DNA of 64,000 bases from Promethearchaeota archaeon (GCA_016840165.1 JAEOSU010000051.1:223090-287089), one strand, 5' to 3'; counted from the stretch's first letter, positions 44,984 through 56,166 are shown. Made by a program: numbers and translations. The notes: generated by a model not told the origin, from the sequence alone.

Positions 44984-45226
44984 TCAAATTTCAGTGTTTA
45001 GATTCTTAATCAATGACAATAAATATTGAGCATGAAATGATTCTTTATCATCTAATTGATCATAAGAACTAATATACTCAGTTAATTGTTTTTGTTTTTC
45101 CAAAAATTCTATTTCTATATAACCCTTAGAGAAATCTAAAATGAAATCTCTATAACCTTCATAATATTCTTTTTCTTTTACAATGTCCGAAAATTTTACT
45201 AAAGTTTCCATTTTTTTCACATCCAT
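44984..45226 (-). CDS. Small helical protein; stand-alone paralogue of the helical hairpin of 49539-50177
   Basis: Ungapped 50-aa alignment with 19 identities to the 212-aa protein; may start at MET (45211). Confidence 0.75.
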   Translation of the reverse strand: MDVKKMETLVKFSDIVKEKEYYEGYRDFILDFSKGYIEIEFLEKQKQLTEYISSYDQLDDKESFHAQYLLSLIKNLNTEI

Positions 45227-45286
45227 TTATATTAATTTAAAGATATGACTTATCTATGTAAATTACCATCATCAGATAATTTAAAA

Positions 45287-45320
45287 AATTTGATAAGAAA
45301 AATTTTAAGAGATTTGACAA
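45287..45320. promoter_or_regulatory. Copy 1 of shared upstream element AATTTGATAAGAAAAATTT-N8-TTGAYAA
   Basis: Exact 19-bp match to 50236-50254 plus a second TTGAYAA at the same 24-bp spacing. Confidence 0.6.
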
Positions 45321-45425
45321 ATTAATTTTTCAAAAATTTGGCTTAATAATTTTTCTTATTATAGAAATTAAGAATATACAAATTTAGAAAAATGTGGAAA
45401 ATAAAAATAAAAGGAGGATATAATT

Positions 45426-47684
45426 TTATCTGTATATATCTTCAACAATTTTAATCGATTTTTTATAAGATTGTTTTGCTTTATCGGCACCCTTCTTTAC
45501 TTTTTCAATTGCTCTTTCAAACTCTTCTTGGGATATTTTAAATTTCATATAAGAATTTGGGTCTGTTACGTCTACATTAATATCGAAGACTCCCCTTCTA
45601 ATTGCCAATATGGCAGCTTCTTCACAAACTCCTTTGATATCTGCACCTGTATACCCTTCCAATTGCTCTGCTAATGTTTCAATATTTATATTTTTATCAA
45701 TTGGACGATCTTTTAAGTGAATGTTTAATATTTCTATTCGAGAGTTTTTATTTGGTAATGGGATTTCAATATGCCTACCAAATCTACCGGATCGTAATAA
45801 CGCAGGATCTAATAAATCTGGCCGATTAGTAGCTGCAATTAGGATGACATCCCGTAAATCTTCTAATCCATCCATCTCCGTAAGAAGTTGAGCTACAACT
45901 TGCTCAATTACTCTTGAACCAGAAGATTCAGAGCGCCGTGAAGCAATTGCATCTATCTCATCAAAAAAAATAATACATGGTGCTGCGGCTCTCGCCTTCC
46001 GGAAAACTTCCCGTACTGCTTTAGCACTTTCTCCAACCCATTTAGAAAGGAATTCTGGTCCCTTAACTGAAATAAAATTGATTTCGGTTTCATGAGCCAG
46101 TGCTTTTGCTAATAAAGTTTTTCCTGTACCTGGGAGCCCAAACATTAAAATCCCATTTGGTGGTTCAGATTTCATATATCCATAAAAGCCACGGTATTTT
46201 AAAGGCCACTCAATTATTTCTCTTAATTGTTGCTTCGCGTCTTCTAATCCACCAATATCATCCCATGTTTCCCTTGGTTGAGTTATTAAAACCTCTCTTA
46301 ATGCTGACGGTTCAACGCTACTTAATGCATCATTAAAGTGTTCCATTTTTATTTTTAATTGAACTAATACATCTTCGGGGATGGGTTTATCTAAATCAAT
46401 TTCTGGAATGATTTCTCTTATAGCAAGCATCGCTGCTTCTTTACAGAGTGCTTTAATATCCGCTCCGATAAATCCATGCGTTTTTTCCGCAATTTCTTTG
46501 AGGTTTATTTCAGCATCTAATGGGATTCCTCTAGTGTGAATTAATAATATCTCATAGCGACCATTTGTATCAGGAACTTTTATTTCAATTTCTCTATCAA
46601 ACCTACCTGGTCGTCTTAAGGCAATATCAACATTATTTATTTTATTTGTGGCGGCGATAACAATAATTTCTCCACGTGTTTCTAAACCATCCATTAATGA
46701 TAGTAATTGAGCCACGATTCGTGATTCTACTAGACTTTTTCCCTCTTCTCTCTTAGGTGCAATCGAATCTAATTCATCCAAAAATATTATTGAAGGAGCC
46801 TGTTCTTTTGCTTCTTCGAATACTTTACGGAGATTCTCCTCACTCTGTCCAAAAAACTTACTCATTATCTCTGGTCCACTTATACTTATAAAATGAGCGT
46901 CCGTCTCAGATGCAACCGCTTTAGCCAACAAAGTCTTTCCCGTTCCAGGAGGTCCATATAATAATACACCTTTAGGAGGTTCGACTCCTATTCGTTCAAA
47001 AAGTTCAGGATGACGAATTGGAAGTTCAATTATTTCTCGAATTTTTTGAATTGTTCCTTCTAATCCTCCAATATCCTCATATGTTACTTTTTCACGTATC
47101 TTTTGTAGTTTTTTTTCAATATCACTTATTTGTTCATATTTAACGATAGTACTTTTTGAAATATTCGATTTTTGAATTTGATCCGTGAACACAATTTTAG
47201 TATCCAGATTAATGGTTACAGCTTCCGTTTTTGGAGTATAGTCTACTACCGCTAAATCAATTCTATGTGCCATTGCATAGAAACTAAGATTATCACCCAT
47301 CGTTATAACTCGATTTTCCAATTTTCTAGCTAATGCTTGCGGATCTCGAGGGACTAATGAAGAATTTAACCCTGCAAACGTAATACTCTTCGCAGGACTG
47401 GCATCAATCTTTTTAATCTCCACTAAATCATCTATTGAGGCATTTAGGTTCCTTCGTAAACTAGGATCCATTCGAATAACAAAAATTCCTTTATCTTCAC
47501 TCCTTCCTGTCGATAATATTGCAACAGTTTTTTTATTAATTATTGGATGGTTAATTCTAATGATATCACCAACTTTCAAATCTAATTCTAAAATAACATC
47601 GGGATCAATTCTTACTATTCCTCTACCCGCATCTTCTTTAAAGGCATCTTTTACTCTTAACTTATATTTAGGCGCTTCATTCAT
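45426..47684 (-). CDS. cdc48: Cdc48/VAT AAA+ ATPase
   Basis: N-domain (GRGIVRID); D1 GPPGTGKT / IFLDELD / [10 protein letters not shown]; D2 GLPGTGKT / FFDEID / LRSGRF; C-terminal HbYX-type IYR. Confidence 0.95.
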
Positions 47685-47759
47685 AGAATTTCCCTCCTTC
47701 TAATCATAGTTAAATTAATTAAAAAAAATAAAATAATTAAAAATATAAAATTCTATCAT

Positions 47760-48743
47760 CTATTTTTTGAGAAGTTCAGTTGCTACATTGAACGCATGTT
47801 GATAATCAAAGATTTTTAGACCTTTAGTTTTAGCAGCCTCTTTCAATATTTCAGCCTCTGAATTAGCTTTCAATCTTCCCAATGCTAATGCTCCTATCCC
47901 AAAAATTCCAGGATATATCTCATCATTTTTGTGTTTTGGTTTAATCCCCTCAATTCCATATGGTGGGACTAGATTAATATCAACAGCTAACTTTTTTCCT
48001 GTTAATTTTTGCATCCATTCTTCGGATAAAATTTCCACTCCCGCTGCAGCAAGTGACCAAATAATGTCCGCTTCTTGAGCTATCTCAAATCGTTCTTCAA
48101 ATGCTGGAGCAAAAACACCGTTGATCTTTATTGCTTCTTCACCTGCCTCTTCAGTTAATTCCTTAGCTAAATTTTCGATAAATTCTTCACTGGATTTATC
48201 CCATGTTTCTACTATAGAGGTATTACAACCAATTTTTGCCGCTAAAATAGCTGCTATTCTTGCTACTGGACCCGCACCAAAAATGACAACTTTTTTCCCT
48301 TTCAAATCATTTATTCCATGCTTTCTATTTGCGATATCAATTGTCATTGCTACCACCGCAGATGCCGTCGTATGAGATCCACGCGGATCAATGACTATAG
48401 GGCATTCAAATGGAGGTACTAATGACTTCTTTACGGCCTTCGCTATCTTTTCACCCTCTTTAACGTCAGATCCTCCTATAAAGAAAGTAGTGGGAGCGTT
48501 TGGTTTACGGGAAAAGATTGCATCTTGCACAAGTTTTGGAACATAATCCGCTTTCATTTTACTGACAGGTACCACGATATCAAAACCTGCATCATAGGCC
48601 ATATTTATATCAAATGGAGAGGCATTTTCATCAGTATCAAAAAAATAACAAATTTTATCAAAATTATCTTGCTTCTTAATGAAAATGGGGGTTAGCTCAA
48701 TGATAGATTTTCCCAATATACTTTTTGTTTTTCTTTCGACCAT
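47760..48743 (-). CDS. NAD(P)-dependent methylene-tetrahydromethanopterin/THF dehydrogenase (MtdA/MtdB-like)
   Basis: FDTDENASPFDINMAYDAGFD, VQDAIFSR, FIGG, PPF, DPRGSHTTASA, GAGPV, DINLVPPYGIEG, GIGALALG. Confidence 0.82.
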   Translation of the reverse strand: MVERKTKSILGKSIIELTPIFIKKQDNFDKICYFFDTDENASPFDINMAYDAGFDIVVPVSKMKADYVPKLVQDAIFSRKPNAPTTFFIGGSDVKEGEKIAKAVKKSLVPPFECPIVIDPRGSHTTASAVVAMTIDIANRKHGINDLKGKKVVIFGAGPVARIAAILAAKIGCNTSIVETWDKSSEEFIENLAKELTEEAGEEAIKINGVFAPAFEERFEIAQEADIIWSLAAAGVEILSEEWMQKLTGKKLAVDINLVPPYGIEGIKPKHKNDEIYPGIFGIGALALGRLKANSEAEILKEAAKTKGLKIFDYQHAFNVATELLKK

Positions 48744-48785
48744 TATTTTCAACTCTTTTTTGCTATTTTAAATTTAATAATTAAA

Positions 48786-49517
48786 TTATTTAGTAATATC
48801 AATTTCAACTTCCTTTTCCAGTTCTTCTTCCACTTCTTCTGTTTTTATCGTTCGTTTTATTTTCACTTGCTCAGATTCGATTCCTAAGTCCTTTGTTAAC
48901 TTTTCAATTCCATCAAAGTGGCGAGGATCGCATATAAATAAAGCCTTTAGCTTCTTTTCATTTATCTCGCGTGCTAGATTTAGGATATTCATCATCATCC
49001 ATGCTTCTCTTACTTTATAACGAACTTCATCTTCTTGAGTATTATAATCTTTTTGCATATATTCTTTCCATAGTACTAATTGCTGAAAAAATTCATCCTT
49101 TTCAGGATTTTTACCCTGGTTCTTAATTATATCACGAATTCTGTTTTCAAGATTTTGGATCATCGAACGATGTTCATCTAACGCAGAAGATAAATATAAT
49201 TCAGCATTTTCTGAAATATCTGCATGTTTGAAAGGAATCTTATATTTTGCAAACAATGCTTCTAGTGGATCATTTTGATTTAATCCATTATCCCAAGAAT
49301 TTGGTTTCTCTTCAACTGCGAAATTAGGCCTATATTTTTCTATTAACGATTCAATCAGTTGCAAATACTCTTTCGAAATTAAATGGAGATTCCATATAAG
49401 ATCGTCTTTTACTTCTTTCGGTACTTCAAACCACCAGTCGATAGGAAACTCACTTTCGACCATTATTAATTTTAAATACTTATCCTTTAAAGGTTTTAAT
49501 TCTAACACTTCTGGCAT
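48786..49517 (-). CDS. Hypothetical protein, paralogue of 49539-50177 (possibly TraB/Tiki/EreA-ChaN-like fold with helical insert)
   Basis: Shared EVLELKP, IP....DI...A..YL and R..W....L.LA; also KYRPNFAVEE and ALFICDPRH. Confidence 0.65.
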   Translation of the reverse strand: MPEVLELKPLKDKYLKLIMVESEFPIDWWFEVPKEVKDDLIWNLHLISKEYLQLIESLIEKYRPNFAVEEKPNSWDNGLNQNDPLEALFAKYKIPFKHADISENAELYLSSALDEHRSMIQNLENRIRDIIKNQGKNPEKDEFFQQLVLWKEYMQKDYNTQEDEVRYKVREAWMMMNILNLAREINEKKLKALFICDPRHFDGIEKLTKDLGIESEQVKIKRTIKTEEVEEELEKEVEIDITK

Positions 49518-49538
49518 TTATAATCCCCTCATTATATT

Positions 49539-50177
49539 TTAAAAAATTACATTTTGAATAATATGCTTTTTATTATAGGACACAACTTTCACTCCTAATT
49601 CTCTTAAATTTTTTGTTATTTCTGGGCAAATTTCCTCACAAATATCTTCTTGGACAAAATGAACAAATACAATAACATTCTTGTCATAGGATGCTGCTAA
49701 ATCTAACATTTTTTTAACTATCCATTGGGGTCTTAGTTGTAAACTAAGAAAGTTCTCCTTTTCCTGAATCTCGACTCCTAGCATATCTATCCAATTTTTC
49801 AAACTAAGTCCTTTGTATGATTCCTTATCTTTCATGCTTTCATATTCTTCAAATAATTCTGTTTGAAGTTGCTGTTTTTCTATAATTTCTTGATATAAAT
49901 ATCCCATTGCATAATCTGGGATATCTACTTGAAAGTAAGGAATGTTCAGTTTCTCTAATGTTTGTGCAAAAGGAGTTTTACTAAATTCCCTCATGATTAC
50001 TTGAAAGTCAACCGTTACAAAATTAACGCCATTCTTCTTTAAAAATACTATTAATTTTGATGGATCCATATCCTGAAAGTATTTAGCATTCTCTTTTGAG
50101 CTAATAAATGCTGTAATTTTCCTTTTTTTTATTGGTTTTAATTCTAAAACTTCCATTTTTTTATACACCTCATTCAA
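49539..50177 (-). CDS. Hypothetical protein, paralogue of 48786-49517 and 44984-45226
   Basis: Same shared motifs; likely start at MEVLELKP (50156) after a GAGGTG RBS. Confidence 0.65.
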   Translation of the reverse strand: MNEVYKKMEVLELKPIKKRKITAFISSKENAKYFQDMDPSKLIVFLKKNGVNFVTVDFQVIMREFSKTPFAQTLEKLNIPYFQVDIPDYAMGYLYQEIIEKQQLQTELFEEYESMKDKESYKGLSLKNWIDMLGVEIQEKENFLSLQLRPQWIVKKMLDLAASYDKNVIVFVHFVQEDICEEICPEITKNLRELGVKVVSYNKKHIIQNVIF

Positions 50178-50207
50178 ATTGGTTTTTTAAGAGAAAGGTT
50201 ATCTAAG

Positions 50208-50443
50208 TTGATAATCCTCTTGTCAAAATAAAAAGAATTTGATAAGAAAAATTTCTGATATTTTGATAATTCTATTAATCAAAACTTCAAATCGTACAAT
50301 TTTTCTTGTTATATCAAAAATCTACATTCCCTTGCCCAAAGTTGATAATCAATTTTTTGAATTCAAAAAGGTCATGATCAATTTCAGACAAATTTAAATA
50401 GTTGGGTAACAATCATTATCATGGAGAAAAATAAATTTGTCAA
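50208..50443. promoter_or_regulatory. Divergent promoter region with six TTGAYAA half-sites, including copy 2 of the shared 19-bp element (50236-50254)
   Basis: TTGATAA at 50208, 50239, 50263 and 50342; TTGTCAA at 50220 and 50437; palindrome TTTTTGAATTCAAAAA at 50354-50369; TATA-like TTTAAATA at 50393-50400. Confidence 0.55.
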
Positions 50444-50492
50444 AATAATAAACTAACAAAAAAGATAATCAAAAAAAAGGTGGGGGGATTGT

Positions 50493-53036
50493 ATTACGGA
50501 AATTTATTCAATCTTGTCACATCCCTTTCGTAGGAAAATTCTTTTCATATTAGAAAAAGAAGGCTTTATTCCCTATACAGATTTAATGGAGAGGTTAGGG
50601 GTAGATCAAACGGGTCAATTGAACTTTCATTTAAAAAAACTTGGTTCTCTCATCGATAAAGATAAAAAGTCTTATTTCTTGACAGAGGACGGAAAGAGAG
50701 TCCTTAAATTAATCAATGTCAATAAGCGTATCCTTTCTGGGGAAGATCTTGAATATTTAGGAAAGAAGGGAAGTGAAATTAACCGTATTGGAGTAATTAT
50801 ATGCAATTGCAATACAGAAATATCCAATGTAATAAACATTAATGCATTAGAGCATTATATTGAAAAGTTAGATGGGGTAGTTTCTGTTAATGTTTTTGAC
50901 AATTTATGTCAAGAAAAAAACTTAAATAAAATAACTAGCTGGACTAAAGATAATTTTTTAAATAAAATCGTGATAGCCGCATGTTCACCAAAAACCCATC
51001 AGAATATTTTTGAACGAATTTTTAAGGGGATAATTGAACGGGCTAATATTGAAATAGCTAATATTAGAGAGCAATGTTGTTGGGTACATCATTCAAATGA
51101 TCAACAATTTGATCCATTATTAGCATTAAAGAAAGCGCAACTGCTCGTTGAAGCTGCAGTTGAGCGGATCAAAATGCAAAAGAAGATATTAATTAAAACA
51201 GTCGAGGTTGAAAAAAGTTGTGCGATATTGGGTGGTGGTATTGCAGGTATGACTTTAGCATTGAATCTTTCCTCTGCTGGCATTAAAGTATATCTTATTG
51301 AAAATTCACCAACTTTAGGAGGAAAGATAGCTAGATGGTATCGGGTTTCTAATATGGGTGATTGTTCAATTTGCTTTACTTCAGAGCTCATAGGTGAAAT
51401 TGTTAAAGAAAAGAACATTGAAATTTTTACTAATACTGAAGTTGAAATGGTCTCTGGAGATGTAGGAAATTTCACTCTAAATTTACTAAAAAAACCCCGA
51501 TTTGTTGACGAAAAGAAGTGTACAGGATGTAAACAATGTATAAGTGTATGTGCCAAACAAAAAGTGGATGATTATGAATTTGGACTGAATAACTGTAAAA
51601 TTATTCATTTTCCCTTCCAAAACTGCTATCCATATGCTCCGATAATCAATGAAGATGATGTCAAAAGCTGTTTAGATTGTAGAATTTGCGAAAGGGTATG
51701 TATTAATAATGCCATTGATTTAAATCAGAAACCTGAAGAGATACAAATCAAGGTAGGGGCAAAGGTTATAGCTATAGGGGCTGATCTTTATAATAAATTA
51801 GATGAATATCATTATAATCCTAAAAAAGATATTATAACGAATGCTCAATTCGAACGCCTTTTATCCGCTGATGGGATAACAGAAGGTAATTTGATTCGTT
51901 TGTCAGATGGAAAACCTATCAAATCAATCTCAATTATCCAAGAGGTTGGACCGTCATCTTATCTTACAGAATATTCGGAAATTTTGGCAAAGAAGTATAT
52001 TGAAGATATTAAAATAAAAAGTCCCGATTGCGAGGTAAACGTTTTTTATGATTTAAGTAAGTTAAAAGACAAAAATGAAGTTTTGTTGCGAACAACTAAT
52101 CCAAGTTTTATGTATGCCAATAGCTTATCTATTGCATCCAATAAACATCTAAATTATGTAATTGCAGATAATATAGAATTTCCAAGCGATTTGATCGTAT
52201 TAAATGTTAAATATGTGCCAAATAAAGATTTAAAGATTCTTCGTAGATTTATGGACTTTACATTAATGGACGATGGGTTTATGAGTGAAGAAACATTAGC
52301 CTCAGGGATATATGGTATTGGTACGATATTTGGTCCCTTAAGTTATCAATCAACCATCTCAACTACAAATAGGGTTGCCCTAAAAGTAATTTCTTTGCTA
52401 CTTAATGAATATTTAATAGCTGAATTCACTGGAATTGAAATCAATGAAGATAAATGCGGATTATGCGGATTATGCGTTAAATCCTGTCCCTATAATGCTA
52501 TAAGTATCGAATCAGATAAAATTACTATCGATAAATTCAAATGCAAGGGATGCGGGACCTGTGCAAGTGTATGTCCTACTAATGCTATTGAAATGAATAT
52601 CGATACCTCAAAAAAGATTATGAAGACTATTGAAATATATTCAAAATTCAATAAAGGTCCAAAAATTATAGCTTTTTGTTGCCAATCATGTGGTTATGCT
52701 GCAGCTGATGATGCAGGTCTTAAAAAGGAAATCTATCCTCCCCATATTTTTGTTGTACGCATACCATGTACAGGGCGGTTAGATACGGAATTTATCTTTA
52801 AATCATTTGAGATGGGATTTGATGGAGTGATGGTGATAGGCTGTAGAAAAGATGCTTGTAGATATATCGATGGTATAGAAAAAGCAAAGCAGAGAGTTCA
52901 GTTATTAAAAAAGATATTAGAACCAAAATTTAGAAATAGGATTATTTTAATGAATTTAAATGCCGTTGAAGGCCATAAATTCGCTGAAACGGCTAATAAA
53001 TTTTATAATCTTTTAAATGAGGTGGCTAAAAATTAA
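50493..53036 (+). CDS. Winged-HTH - HdrA-like flavoprotein - MvhD fusion (start uncertain: ATT 50493 or TTG 50514)
   Basis: wHTH: SILSHPFRRKIL...TGQLNFHLKKL...YFLTEDG. HdrA: RIGVIICNC, AACSP, NIREQCCWVH, GGGIAG, DCSIC and ferredoxin motifs. MvhD: AFCCQSCGY, RIPCTGR, GCRKDACRY. Confidence 0.88.
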   Translation: MTEIYSILSHPFRRKILFILEKEGFIPYTDLMERLGVDQTGQLNFHLKKLGSLIDKDKKSYFLTEDGKRVLKLINVNKRILSGEDLEYLGKKGSEINRIGVIICNCNTEISNVININALEHYIEKLDGVVSVNVFDNLCQEKNLNKITSWTKDNFLNKIVIAACSPKTHQNIFERIFKGIIERANIEIANIREQCCWVHHSNDQQFDPLLALKKAQLLVEAAVERIKMQKKILIKTVEVEKSCAILGGGIAGMTLALNLSSAGIKVYLIENSPTLGGKIARWYRVSNMGDCSICFTSELIGEIVKEKNIEIFTNTEVEMVSGDVGNFTLNLLKKPRFVDEKKCTGCKQCISVCAKQKVDDYEFGLNNCKIIHFPFQNCYPYAPIINEDDVKSCLDCRICERVCINNAIDLNQKPEEIQIKVGAKVIAIGADLYNKLDEYHYNPKKDIITNAQFERLLSADGITEGNLIRLSDGKPIKSISIIQEVGPSSYLTEYSEILAKKYIEDIKIKSPDCEVNVFYDLSKLKDKNEVLLRTTNPSFMYANSLSIASNKHLNYVIADNIEFPSDLIVLNVKYVPNKDLKILRRFMDFTLMDDGFMSEETLASGIYGIGTIFGPLSYQSTISTTNRVALKVISLLLNEYLIAEFTGIEINEDKCGLCGLCVKSCPYNAISIESDKITIDKFKCKGCGTCASVCPTNAIEMNIDTSKKIMKTIEIYSKFNKGPKIIAFCCQSCGYAAADDAGLKKEIYPPHIFVVRIPCTGRLDTEFIFKSFEMGFDGVMVIGCRKDACRYIDGIEKAKQRVQLLKKILEPKFRNRIILMNLNAVEGHKFAETANKFYNLLNEVAKN

Positions 53037-53796
53037 AGTAAAAGTCATCATCGAATCTTTAACTTCTTGTAGTGGATGTATTTTAACATTGCTTTCATTA
53101 GATGTGTTTCCTCAATTTTTAGAAAGAACTGAAATTACTTATTTTCCATTTATATCAGATAAAAAAGAATTTGTAAAGTCAGACATAGCCCTAGTCGAGG
53201 GATGTGTTTCAGAAGCATCTCAAATAGAAACTTTAAAGACTATACGTAAAAATTCTGTAAAATTGTGTGCACTAGGAACTTGTGCTGCATTTGGAGGTAT
53301 TATGGGGCTTTCGAAAAGAAAAAAATCGGATCCAATTTCAAAATTTGTAGATGTCGATTATGTAATTCCAGGTTGTCCTCCTCCTATTAACTTATTAGGA
53401 AATGCTTTAATGGATCTTGTCGAAAATAAACCTATAAAGTTACCAGAAAAGAATATGTGTTATTCTTGCCCCTTGAAGGGGGAAATGAAAAAAAACCTTA
53501 ATACGCCAATCTTAAGACTTTTCCCTCAGAATTCTAAATTGAACTCAAAAGAAAATGAACAAGAATGTTTTTTAAAAAGAGGAATATTATGTTTAGGTCC
53601 CATAACTCGAGAAGGATGTGATCACAAATGTATTGAACTGGGTATTCCATGTGAAGGATGTTTAGGACCTGTTTCCAAAGATTATACCTCCAATCTAATT
53701 AATTTTTTAAGTCTAGTACCTCTTTCGAATAAATTGAAACGATATTCTGGTATCTTTAATCGATTTTCAAAACCGGTATTAAAGAGGTGTTCATAA
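53017..53796 (+). CDS. mvhG: [NiFe]-hydrogenase small subunit, group 3c (MvhG-like)
   Basis: SCSGC, VEG, GTCA, PGCPP, CYSC, CFL..G.LCLGPITREGC..KC...GIPCEGC.GP. Confidence 0.88.
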   Translation: MRWLKIKVKVIIESLTSCSGCILTLLSLDVFPQFLERTEITYFPFISDKKEFVKSDIALVEGCVSEASQIETLKTIRKNSVKLCALGTCAAFGGIMGLSKRKKSDPISKFVDVDYVIPGCPPPINLLGNALMDLVENKPIKLPEKNMCYSCPLKGEMKKNLNTPILRLFPQNSKLNSKENEQECFLKRGILCLGPITREGCDHKCIELGIPCEGCLGPVSKDYTSNLINFLSLVPLSNKLKRYSGIFNRFSKPVLKRCS

Positions 53797-55098
53797 TTGC
53801 AAAAAGTAATTGAAGTATGTCATCGAGTAGAGGGTCAGGGAAAGATTAACTATTTTGTACAAAATGATAAAATAGATCACGTTAATTTTGTACTATCAGC
53901 CGTGAGGGGATTTGAAAATATTTTAATAGGTAAAAAACTGCAGGATATACCTAGAATTGTCTCAAGAATTTGTGGATTGTGCCAAGCTTCTCAAACAATT
54001 GCAAGTTGTAAAGCGATTGAAGAAATATATGGAATAAAACCTAGCTTTCAATCAATTTTGATTAGGAGACTTCTCATGTCAGCAGAATTAATTAAATCCC
54101 ACATAATTCATTTTTTCTTCCAATGTCTTCCTGATCTTTTAGAGCTCTTTCAAAATGAAGATAAAAATATGGATATTTTTAACTTGATCAAATTAGATCC
54201 TCAATTAACCTCAAGCGTTTATGATTTAATAAAAGCCGCAACAGAAATAAGTCATATTTTTGGTGGAAGAATGATTCATTTGATTACTCCCACCCCTGGT
54301 GGAATGATATATAATCCTTCTAAAAAAAATATTTTACTTGTAAAAAGATATTTACAAAAAGCTTCTACCAATATTGACTATATTCTTCAGAAGTATGTAG
54401 ATCTATTCTCTCAAAAACAACCACCTGAAGATTTTAATTTACATAGCTTAAATATGTTAGGAATGCTTAATGAAGGTCATTATGATCGCTATAATGGAAG
54501 TATACACATAATGCAATCTAATGGAAATGAGATTGAATTTGATGTTTTAGATTATGAGAATTATTTTACCAAAGATGCGAACTTATTTGGGATAAAATTC
54601 TTAATAGATGATCATAAACCAATTTTAACAGGGCCAATTGCGCGATATAGCCTTTGTAGAAATAATAGTCTCAGTATGTACAATTCATTATTGAAGCATT
54701 TTGATATGAGATGGAAAAATAATATATTATTTGTAAATTTTCTACAATTATTAGAGATTTTTAATGAAATTAAGACAAGTGCCGCTATGCTTGAACATAA
54801 TAATTTAGAAAATCATGAATCACTACCTAATCTTAATACTATCGCAAATTATAATGGCATTGGAAATGTAGAAGCTCCCCGTGGGACTCTTGTCCATCAT
54901 TATCATGTAAATAAATCTAATATAGTTGATAAAGTTAAATTATACATACCAACTGAAATAAATTTCCCTTTATTGAATGAAAGCATTAAAGAGTATGCTC
55001 AAAAATTATATGAAAAAGAAGATATTGCGACACTTAATAGAAAAGTTCAGCGCATGGTTAGAGCTTTTGATCCATGCATAGCCTGTGCTACACATTAG
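53797..55098 (+). CDS. mvhA: [NiFe]-hydrogenase large subunit, group 3 (MvhA-like), without C-terminal extension
   Basis: RVEG, RGFE, L1 RICGLC, EAPRGTLVHHY, L2 RAFDPCIACATH directly followed by TAG. Confidence 0.88.
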   Translation: MQKVIEVCHRVEGQGKINYFVQNDKIDHVNFVLSAVRGFENILIGKKLQDIPRIVSRICGLCQASQTIASCKAIEEIYGIKPSFQSILIRRLLMSAELIKSHIIHFFFQCLPDLLELFQNEDKNMDIFNLIKLDPQLTSSVYDLIKAATEISHIFGGRMIHLITPTPGGMIYNPSKKNILLVKRYLQKASTNIDYILQKYVDLFSQKQPPEDFNLHSLNMLGMLNEGHYDRYNGSIHIMQSNGNEIEFDVLDYENYFTKDANLFGIKFLIDDHKPILTGPIARYSLCRNNSLSMYNSLLKHFDMRWKNNILFVNFLQLLEIFNEIKTSAAMLEHNNLENHESLPNLNTIANYNGIGNVEAPRGTLVHHYHVNKSNIVDKVKLYIPTEINFPLLNESIKEYAQKLYEKEDIATLNRKVQRMVRAFDPCIACATH

Positions 55099-55134
55099 GT
55101 ATAGATTAATCAGAATTTAAATGGTGAGAACTAA

Positions 55135-56166
55135 ATTTTCGATTCATTACAAAATACTCCTGAGGAATCTGTAGAACCTGAACAATTATGCGAGGTATTT
55201 TTACTTTATTTTGATGAAGAATTTGGTCACATGCCCCTTCTTATTACTCCAGATGAATCAGTGAGAGATAATGCGGATATTATGCGTTTAGTTAAGATCC
55301 ATTCTATCTGGTTTCTTGATATTAGTGATCAAGCTTCCCCTGATCGTATAGATTTAGAATATCAAGGAAAAATGTATTTTGCAAAAAAATTTATGGTTCC
55401 TTCGAGAAGAGAAAAACGTCGAACTGGTTCTGAAGGCGAACTTTATGAAACTATAGTATTAATTTTATCGTTACCAATTGATATGGATATTTTTGGAGGA
55501 GAACTGTTGAAAAAAATATCTGAGCGGATAATCAAACACTTTAAATTAAAACTATCTTTTTTAATTGAAGCTGAATTGGCTAAAATCAATGTGATAAAAA
55601 CTTCTAAACTAACAGAATCTATTAATATCGGTGAGGCAATAAAAAACCGTATCAAGGTATTAATTAAAAATACTTGTTGTCATTATTTCCAATCTGTTAT
55701 TAAAAAAACTGATGCTACAACCTTCAAACTCCAAAAAGCAATATCCTATTTATCATTAAAAGGGGTTCCAATTAATTATATAGTAAGTGAAAATGAGAGT
55801 TTCGATTTCTCAAATATAAAAATCTTTGAATCAAAAGCTTGTGTGGATGAATTATATCGATTCCAAAAAGACTTCTCAATTATAAGAACAAATTTAGATT
55901 TGAGAACCCAAGAATTAGAAATCCTATTAAAGAATCAAAGCCAAAATATCTATCATCATTTAGAAATTAGAGTTATAGCGATACAAGATTTTTTTGAAAG
56001 TGAAATCTTGCATGAAGAAATTGATGAATGGCTTTCGGAAGAAGAAATCATGATCATTTTACCTGAAGTAACTACTACTCATGAATATTTATTGAGTATT
56101 TTGAATGGAGATTCAAAAAATACCCTCTTTAAACAGAAGATCAATATTTCTATTAAGGATAGTTAA
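55135..56166 (+). CDS. Hypothetical protein with N-terminal longin/uDENN-like domain (start probably upstream of ATG 55231)
   Basis: Frame is open from 55135. VFLLYFDEEFGHMP, mostly upstream of the annotated ATG, matches the uDENN FD...GP beta-hairpin pattern. Confidence 0.6.
   Translation: MFDSLQNTPEESVEPEQLCEVFLLYFDEEFGHMPLLITPDESVRDNADIMRLVKIHSIWFLDISDQASPDRIDLEYQGKMYFAKKFMVPSRREKRRTGSEGELYETIVLILSLPIDMDIFGGELLKKISERIIKHFKLKLSFLIEAELAKINVIKTSKLTESINIGEAIKNRIKVLIKNTCCHYFQSVIKKTDATTFKLQKAISYLSLKGVPINYIVSENESFDFSNIKIFESKACVDELYRFQKDFSIIRTNLDLRTQELEILLKNQSQNIYHHLEIRVIAIQDFFESEILHEEIDEWLSEEEIMIILPEVTTTHEYLLSILNGDSKNTLFKQKINISIKDS

Follow-up and report, generated by a model that had tools for sequence, protein, structure and literature searches.

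A winged-helix HdrA-MvhD fusion with hydrogenase subunits as a candidate DNA-binding, hydrogen-responsive regulator in a Promethearchaeota archaeon

We analysed a stretch of 64,000 nucleotides (the window) that forms the terminal 64 kb of contig C30 in a 3.6-Mb, 99.7% complete Promethearchaeota genome, whose DNA occurs in marine sediment metagenomes and whose proteins have their named relatives in Promethearchaeota/Lokiarchaeota. The subject is a divergent gene pair within it. The plus arm encodes a protein in which a winged helix-turn-helix (wHTH) domain, HdrA and MvhD are fused, followed by the [NiFe]-hydrogenase subunits MvhG and MvhA, the latter ending without a C-terminal tail; the facing minus arm encodes two proteins named here U212 and U243, an MtdA-type dehydrogenase and Cdc48. 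This arrangement had been proposed in an initial annotation of the sequence and was confirmed by Pfam and by inspection of the sequence. We give about an even chance to the reading that the plus arm encodes a three-subunit, H2/redox-responsive, DNA-binding sensor-regulator complex that would control three promoters. Domains were called with Pfam and NCBIfam, and remote comparisons were made with PDB alignments, hhalign and Foldseek. The main genes of the two arms are as follows.

50493..53036, plus strand: wHTH-HdrA-MvhD fusion (Pfam, PDB alignments, HA4 columns, start-codon context)
53017..53796, plus strand: MvhG-type hydrogenase small subunit (Oxidored_q6 in Pfam, VhuG in NCBIfam; cysteines for three clusters)
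53797..55098, plus strand: group-3 [NiFe] large subunit MvhA (NiFeSe_Hases in Pfam; RICGLCQASQ, EGQ, DPCIACATH end)
49539..50156, minus strand: U212, a free paralogue of U243 (hhalign, synteny; ATG start at 50156)
48786..49517, minus strand: U243, an alpha/beta domain that includes a long helical hairpin and in most lineages is fused to MtdA
47760..48752, minus strand: MtdA-type homologue of methylene-tetrahydromethanopterin/tetrahydrofolate (H4MPT/H4F) dehydrogenase (Mpt_N in Pfam, match to 1LU9)

The fusion protein and its hydrogenase subunits

Our Pfam analysis of the 840-aa open reading frame at 50514-53036 revealed a DUF7347/wHTH match at residues 2-67 (E 8e-10; 39 bits against a cut-off of 27.6), a flavin adenine dinucleotide (FAD) Rossmann motif at residue 237, two ferredoxin-type dicluster regions and a C-terminal FlpD/MvhD domain at residues 718-836 (E 9e-35). 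The protein can be aligned to the solved HdrA chains 8RVU and 5ODC from residue 87 on, and residues 1-66 align weakly with the ArsR-type protein 1Y0U (E 0.05) through the recognition helix HLKKL; fragments of the fusion carry the NCBI names 'ArsR family' or 'wHTH transcriptional regulator'. Judged by these matches, the N-terminus is an ArsR-type winged-helix domain of approximately the first 70 aa, followed by a linker. Across five families, the winged helix is conserved at least as well as the enzyme core, with HLKKL kept in all of them. It occurs in none of the approximately ten HdrA paralogues of the genome, and a search for stand-alone relatives of it yielded nothing but fragments of this fusion at contig ends. 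The true start of the fusion is probably ATT 50493 or ACG 50496, six codons 5' of the TTG. Among eight loci, the codon at the conserved start position is ATG in four, TTG in one, ATA in two and, in the window, ACG preceded by ATT; the non-canonical codons in three of the eight (ATA, ATA, ACG) would be compatible with low expression of the fusion. Apparent non-canonical starts after a good Shine-Dalgarno sequence are seen in two genes of the cluster, at ATT 55135 and at ATT/ACG 50493/50496, with ATA or TTG in orthologues.

Five of the six [4Fe-4S] sites and the FAD motif are present in the HdrA part. The cysteine pair (DCSxC), the shuttle cluster and the HA5/HA6 sites are retained, and the Cys pair and the other clusters read are invariant across 24 aligned sequences. 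At HA4, to which the motif CxGxRD...CSxxCC is assigned following Wagner et al. 2017, all four cysteines are replaced in the window. In the families compared, labelled f1 (the window's own), f19, f16, f7 and f12, this motif is partly lost in other members of f1, lost in f19, and kept in f16, f7 and f12. HA4 relays the high-potential electron from FAD to HdrB (PMC12350162, PMC13580544), and with HA4 the HdrA of the window's family has lost its exit towards HdrBC. The wHTH-type HdrA proteins also have an extra conserved Cys or Cys pair at residues ~186-189 (REQCCWVH), where methanogen HdrA reads REHDSWVH.

As had been annotated, neither hdrB/hdrC nor a hydrogenase maturation protease is encoded in the window, where we found no CCG/HdrB domain and no HycI; the nearest CCG genes lie approximately 11 kb before it, and HycI lies on another contig, C4. 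A second hydrogenase is encoded on contig C19 (2231-6399), with a Vhu-type large subunit whose gene directly precedes those for HdrC and HdrB; an ordinary 803-aa HdrA-MvhD is encoded on contig C5. Given this separate set, the cluster in the window is an extra copy rather than the housekeeping Mvh-Hdr system. The C19 MvhG is of double length (466 aa), and the C19 large subunit ends in ...LPDPWIK without the C-terminal cysteine motif DPCxxC; another locus in the genome presumably encodes a separate small peptide of the VhuU type, which may contain selenocysteine.

MvhA has both Ni-Fe cysteine pairs (RICGLC, DPCIAC), a stop codon directly after DPCIACATH, and the group-3 models ShyA/VhuA as its best NCBIfam matches. 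Every full-length MvhA orthologue read (17/20) has all four Ni ligands; of the remaining three, two show the variant KICGFC at L1 and one lacks the N-terminal part. The L1 motif is RICGLCxxxQ in 12/12 f1 orthologues, with His in place of the Gln in f19, f16, f7, f12 and the C19 enzyme. Loss of the tail is limited to f1, and MvhA in the other families has C-terminal tails of 8-13 residues. A census of the 120 nearest MvhA clusters found Gln in L1 in 119 and no tail in any of the 120. For comparison, HoxC of the Cupriavidus necator H2 sensor, read from pHG1, has RVCGICSVSQ (Gln67), EGD rather than EGH, and the end DPCMVCTVH, and the large subunit of the membrane-bound hydrogenase of the same species combines the His and EGH with a tail of 15 aa. 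Regulatory hydrogenases are characterised by a Gln that replaces this conserved L1 His (PMC5665086). Convergent acquisition of this exchange together with tail loss would sharpen ideas of what makes a [NiFe] site a sensor.

Comparison with five relatives gave identities of 46-65% for MvhA, 70-80% for the fusion, and, within the same genomes, 84-93% for the large subunit of the housekeeping enzyme; MvhA evolves much faster than the housekeeping hydrogenase. This divergence, together with the loss of one cluster, is what a decaying duplicate would display, the loss of HA4, the altered His and the fast evolution all reflecting relaxed selection on a redundant hydrogenase. We consider such decay highly improbable, because all frames are open, the Ni ligands, the Cys pair and the other clusters are maintained as described above, and fixation of the Gln and the C-terminus in 119-120 of 120 clusters represents a directional change.

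Candidate operators and promoters

The candidate control elements, in the spacer between the two arms and in front of the gene for p80 (an 80-aa protein described below), are the following.

50208..50282, no strand assigned: U212 promoter control region (TTGATAA-N5-TTGTCAA at 50208-50226, half-site at 50239-50245, imperfect palindrome at 50263-50282)
50227-50236, minus strand: U212 TATA-like box, within the U212 promoter control region
50393..50443, no strand assigned: promoter of the fusion gene, termed the hdrA promoter (TATA box TTTAAATA at 50393-50400, half-site TTGTCAA at 50437-50443)
50405-50420, no strand assigned: imperfect palindrome GgTAA-N6-TTATC of the hdrA promoter, between TATA box and start
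45287..45333, no strand assigned: p80 promoter control region with the layout of the U212 promoter (half-site at 45290-45296, by the TATA box; imperfect palindrome at 45314-45333)

The six TTGAYAA half-sites that the initial annotation had reported between the arms are indeed there, all within 50208-50443 (236 bp), compared with 0.85 per kb genome-wide. The combination of an exact 19-bp element and another half-site at a distance of 24 bp is present at 50236-50269 and again at 45287-45320, and this direct-repeat pattern occurs three times genome-wide on that strand, two of them at the locus in the window. The possibility that TTGAYAA is a general promoter word was rejected: the window contains 65 copies against 54 ± 8 in shuffles, and the composite patterns are nearly confined to the locus.

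Aligning eight orthologous fusion/U212 spacers revealed two footprints. The first, abutting the U212 TATA-like box, consists of a half-site, 17 bp and a TTGATAA-N6-TTRTCAA palindrome; the second, located just after the hdrA TATA box, has a GAYAA-N6-TTATC palindrome and, after it, a TTGTCAA half-site. The p80 promoter has the U212 layout (palindrome-N17-half-site-TATA) in the genome of the window and in four others, with a perfect palindrome in three. In 28 of the 37 loci searched, the 400 bp preceding the fusion gene contain exact GAYAA-N6-TTRTC, against a background of 23 copies in the 3.6-Mb genome, equivalent to 0.0026 per 400 bp. The palindrome-bearing loci include those of f19, f7 and f12, families at 36-54% protein identity in which the neighbouring genes differ; in f16, the search upstream of the fusion gene gave no operator. 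An operator matrix gave four matches in the two spacers, with about 0.02 expected, and a genome-wide scan with the same matrix (~110 matches) could not define a regulon beyond the locus. On contig C70, the intergenic segment C70:15227-15260 contains overlapping TTGTCAA, TTGATAA and GATAA-N6-TTGTC, approximately 6 kb from a large HdrA-like gene (C70:4980-8474), and is possibly a further target of the same regulator.

These patterns also bear on whether the cluster could be a purely metabolic paralogue, in which the winged helix would serve as a protein-protein or structural module and another transcription factor would occupy the operators. Winged helices often mediate protein contacts, and both the weakness of the match to 1Y0U and the missing operator in f16 would agree with this explanation. 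We nevertheless judge it improbable, as the operator accompanies the fusion gene through families with differing neighbours, the HLKKL recognition helix is conserved throughout, and a palindrome suits a dimer.

Distribution of the cluster and its associated genes

We surveyed 201 sampled genomes of the Asgard phylum for full-length matches to fusion residues 1-240 and found the fusion with MvhG/MvhA in 46, belonging to the five families, at 38-82% identity of the fusion. One f16 genome (G050) has two separate full-length fusion copies, on contigs C88 and C257. In 20 fusion loci compared for synteny, MvhG and MvhA lie 3' of the fusion in every case, and homologues of U212, U243 and/or MtdA share the locus in 14-15. 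Co-conservation of the two arms, as originally supposed, therefore holds across the five families for the fusion, MvhG and MvhA with U212/U243/MtdA; it does not extend to Cdc48 and a 311-aa gene downstream of mvhA, which had been counted as parts of the cluster and are linked to it only within the window's family. Of the 46 genomes that have the fusion, 44 encode a protein of the Mpt_N (MtdA) type, as do 17 of the 155 others; its gene lies within 6 kb of the fusion in 30 of the 44 and within 16 kb on the same contig in six more. The association is seen in four of the five families, although the fusion-positive genomes are related and hence not independent in such counts. In f7 and f12 the gene order is fusion, mvhG, mvhA and U243-mtdA, all on one strand. 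The gene after mvhA in f16 (L057:3557-5152) encodes a bifunctional NAD(P)HX epimerase/dehydratase (YjeF_N + Carb_kinase) and not U243-MtdA, and an f12 cluster (L061) is flanked by an NfnB/GltD-like gene and an aldehyde:ferredoxin oxidoreductase. No kinase was found within the conserved cluster in the Pfam calls of the window or in the synteny loci.

The two proteins U212 and U243, previously described as paralogous unknowns, are paralogues by hhalign (99.7%, E 2e-25, 199 columns). Pfam and NCBIfam returned nothing for U212, U243, p80 or the 311-aa gene. The predicted fold of U243 (predicted local distance difference test, pLDDT, 89) is an alpha/beta core with a long helical hairpin, and its conserved positions include E70, Y108, R170 and W173. 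Likenesses over the whole domain are weak: the N-domains of archaeal U243-MtdA fusions gave template modelling (TM) scores of 0.66-0.80, TraB/GumN a TM score of 0.50, and ChaN (2G5G) a Z of 8.3 over 145 residues. Foldseek found no PDB match for U243 at E 0.001 or better, and U243 contains no GxxH motif of the TraB/GumN/ChaN (Tiki) superfamily. The U243 family comprises only 54 representative clusters among 1.84 billion proteins, many of them of the fused length of ~560 aa; U243 and MtdA form one protein of this size in f19, f7, f12 and part of f1, and the split MtdA of the window has an N-terminal remnant of the inter-domain linker.

The gene formerly labelled as an Mtd-like dehydrogenase encodes a full-length MtdA homologue (1LU9/6TLK, E 1e-29, residues 33-327) with Mpt_N and Rossmann domains, and is the only Mpt_N gene of the genome. 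The strand after the MtdA GxGxxA motif reads VETWD in the window and VETWD or VETWS in f1 and f19, as against CGRK in MtdA; in f7 and f12 it reads TSRS or TSRK, a dinucleotide-site ending that is NADP-like, as in MtdA. None of U212, U243 and MtdA contains cysteine motifs. The idea that this protein supplies a missing methylene-H4MPT dehydrogenase was rejected, because F420-dependent MTD, Mch and FolD are all present in the genome. On one metagenome contig (L067:177-2980), a gene for a U243-MtdA fusion and one for an F420-dependent MTD are divergently oriented, and no hydrogenase is visible; another metagenome contig bears a U243-MtdA gene without any hydrogenase. U243-MtdA is thus an independent module linked to one-carbon (C1) metabolism.

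Three further genes adjoin the main cluster.

45426..47684, minus strand: Cdc48/VCP-type double AAA ATPase (Pfam), 76 bp downstream of mtdA
44984..45226, minus strand: p80, an 80-aa protein resembling the U212 helical hairpin, with its own regulated-looking promoter
55135..56166, plus strand: 343-aa protein (the 311-aa gene extended to a probable ATT start), with family-level conservation only

The protein p80 had been regarded as a micro-paralogue carrying its own copy of a shared upstream element. The copy of the element is real (45287-45320), and the paralogy is weak, with 38% identity to U212 residues 86-137 over 52 aa (E about 1e-4). For the 343-aa protein, the predicted structure (pLDDT 65) shows a beta-beta-alpha-beta-beta-beta-alpha N-domain followed by a helical central part and, at the C-terminus, an Ig-like sandwich of seven strands. 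Its N-domain may be longin-like, but no structure matched it, and the earlier 'uDENN-like' label could not be confirmed. Foldseek matches over ~90-125 aligned residues were to Ig-like sandwiches of the FnIII, RhoGDI and FlaF kinds, which we assign to the C-terminal beta-sandwich. A paralogue with 37% identity is encoded at C103:28414-29451.

Proposed mechanism and comparison with known systems

In the mechanism that we propose, MvhA/MvhG would split H2, and the electrons would pass from the MvhG clusters through the [2Fe-2S] centre of the fused MvhD to the flavin and Fe-S centres of HdrA. Two N-terminal ArsR-type winged helices, carried by an HdrA that is a dimer in solved homologues, would bind the GAYAA-N6-TTRTC operators. 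In methanogen Hdr complexes the N-terminal domain belongs to a redox-driven mobile arm (PMC12350162, PMC13580544), and for a winged helix placed on this domain, reduction by H2 would be expected to change DNA affinity. The complex would act at its own promoter, where the position of the operator between the TATA box and the start suggests autorepression, at the divergent U212-U243-mtdA(-cdc48) promoter, and at the p80 promoter, the palindrome and half-site abutting the TATA box at the last two. The sequences themselves show the domains, the conserved fusion, operators and synteny, and the sensor-type exchanges; that the complex binds DNA, depends on H2 and regulates in the direction proposed is what we infer from them. 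In the window's family, the loss of the HA4 exit and the gain of the active-site signature of bacterial H2 sensors favour a sensor over an enzyme. The one-component sensor suggested by the initial annotation is thus partly supported, by the co-conservation of the two arms, the operators, the Gln and missing tail, the loss of HA4 and the rate of MvhA evolution; the enzyme-type state of the distant families limits this support.

Several observations weigh against a dedicated sensor. HdrA retains FAD, the Cys pair, the shuttle cluster and both ferredoxin domains, which is more than sensing requires. Non-sensor hydrogenases with tail-less large subunits also exist. The operators in the genome of the window are imperfect, and taken singly, their scores of 10-15 fall within the ~110 genome-wide matrix matches. 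Like Cdc48 and the 311-aa gene, p80 is linked to the cluster only within the window's own family. In f7, f12 and f16 the HA4 cysteines are still found, as are the L1 His and the C-terminal tail, so that the fusion predates the sensor-type changes and DNA binding needs no dedicated sensor. Both the placement of U243-MtdA after mvhA in the same operon in f7/f12 and the alteration of the MtdA dinucleotide site in the same families that lost HA4 fit metabolic coupling. Given the enzyme-type features and the U243-MtdA operon of the distant families, the ancestral state appears to be that of an enzyme with an added regulatory role, and MtdA could be as much its partner as its target.

Such observations lend weight to a bifunctional, self-regulating enzyme resembling PutA or RbkR, that is, a working hydrogenase-flavoprotein, H2:ferredoxin or NAD(P)-linked, which would feed or drain U243-MtdA and whose winged helix would only tune the expression of its own and partner genes. 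Besides the enzyme-type fusions of f7, f12 and f16 and the operon of f7 and f12, this explanation would accommodate the enrichment of MtdA-type genes (44/46 versus 17/155), the NAD(P)-linked neighbours, namely the NAD(P)HX repair enzyme in f16 and the NfnB/GltD-like gene in f12, and the intact Ni ligands and electron wire. We regard it as a strong rival, less probable than the sensor-regulator reading, given that HA4 is lost in the window's family with no Fe-S partner replacing HdrBC, that the sensor-type Gln and tail loss are fixed clade-wide, and that MvhA is the least constrained subunit.

Since both fusion and operator predate the sensor-type changes, the cluster likely began as an autoregulating enzyme, which in the window's family was left without its high-potential outlet and acquired an active site of the sensor type. 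The broader proposal, that the complex would be the first H2 sensor of an archaeon and also the first case of a hydrogenase complex binding DNA itself, with the autoregulating bifurcating enzyme of f7/f12/f16 giving rise to a dedicated sensor, is offered tentatively, at somewhat less than an even chance.

Transfer of H2 is central to the life of Asgard archaea with their partners and to syntrophy models of eukaryote origin, and we know of no account of how these archaea perceive H2. If the proposal is true, a DNA-binding hydrogenase-flavoprotein would represent a new and much shorter signalling route, and the sampled families would capture the evolution of an enzyme into a sensor in the archaeal lineage closest to eukaryotes, where syntrophy is H2-dependent. 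It would also provide a natural design for H2-responsive gene switches, with a defined operator, three promoters and a small target set that includes a C1 dehydrogenase with an accessory domain of unassigned function. Our literature search, which covered HdrA carrying a helix-turn-helix and group 3c hydrogenases of Asgard archaea, turned up no paper that describes the fusion.

To our knowledge, the H2 sensors described so far are bacterial group-2 hydrogenases that signal through kinases. The cluster in the window resembles HoxBC/HupUV of C. necator and Rhodobacter capsulatus in having Gln for the L1 His, a DPCxxCxxH end without a cleavable tail, no His in the EGH motif (EGQ in the window, EGD in HoxC), and separate energy-converting hydrogenases alongside. 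It differs in being archaeal and, by sequence, of the group-3 Mvh type rather than group 2, and in its proposed output: HoxBC/HupUV signal via a histidine kinase (HoxJ/HupT) and a response regulator, whereas the window's complex would signal through MvhD/HdrA to a fused DNA-binding domain. With the methanogen MvhAGD-HdrABC complex (5ODC, 8RVU) it shares the NiFe site, the MvhG clusters, MvhD, the HdrA FAD and Cys pair, and the N-terminal, inserted and C-terminal ferredoxin clusters; it departs from that complex in the fusion of MvhD to HdrA, the added winged helix, the loss of HA4, the absence of adjacent HdrBC and the tail-less large subunit. The nearest parallels in design are enzymes that bind DNA. 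PutA of Escherichia coli and Salmonella is a flavoenzyme with an N-terminal DNA-binding domain that binds several sites in the divergent promoter region of its own gene under the control of flavin reduction; unlike the protein in the window, it is a bacterial proline dehydrogenase with a ribbon-helix-helix domain, switched by membrane binding and without hydrogenase input. RbkR (PMC5397151) combines an archaeal riboflavin kinase with a winged helix and binds operators before its own and pathway genes; it is a single small protein that responds to the ligands CTP and FMN, whereas the complex proposed here would respond to electrons.

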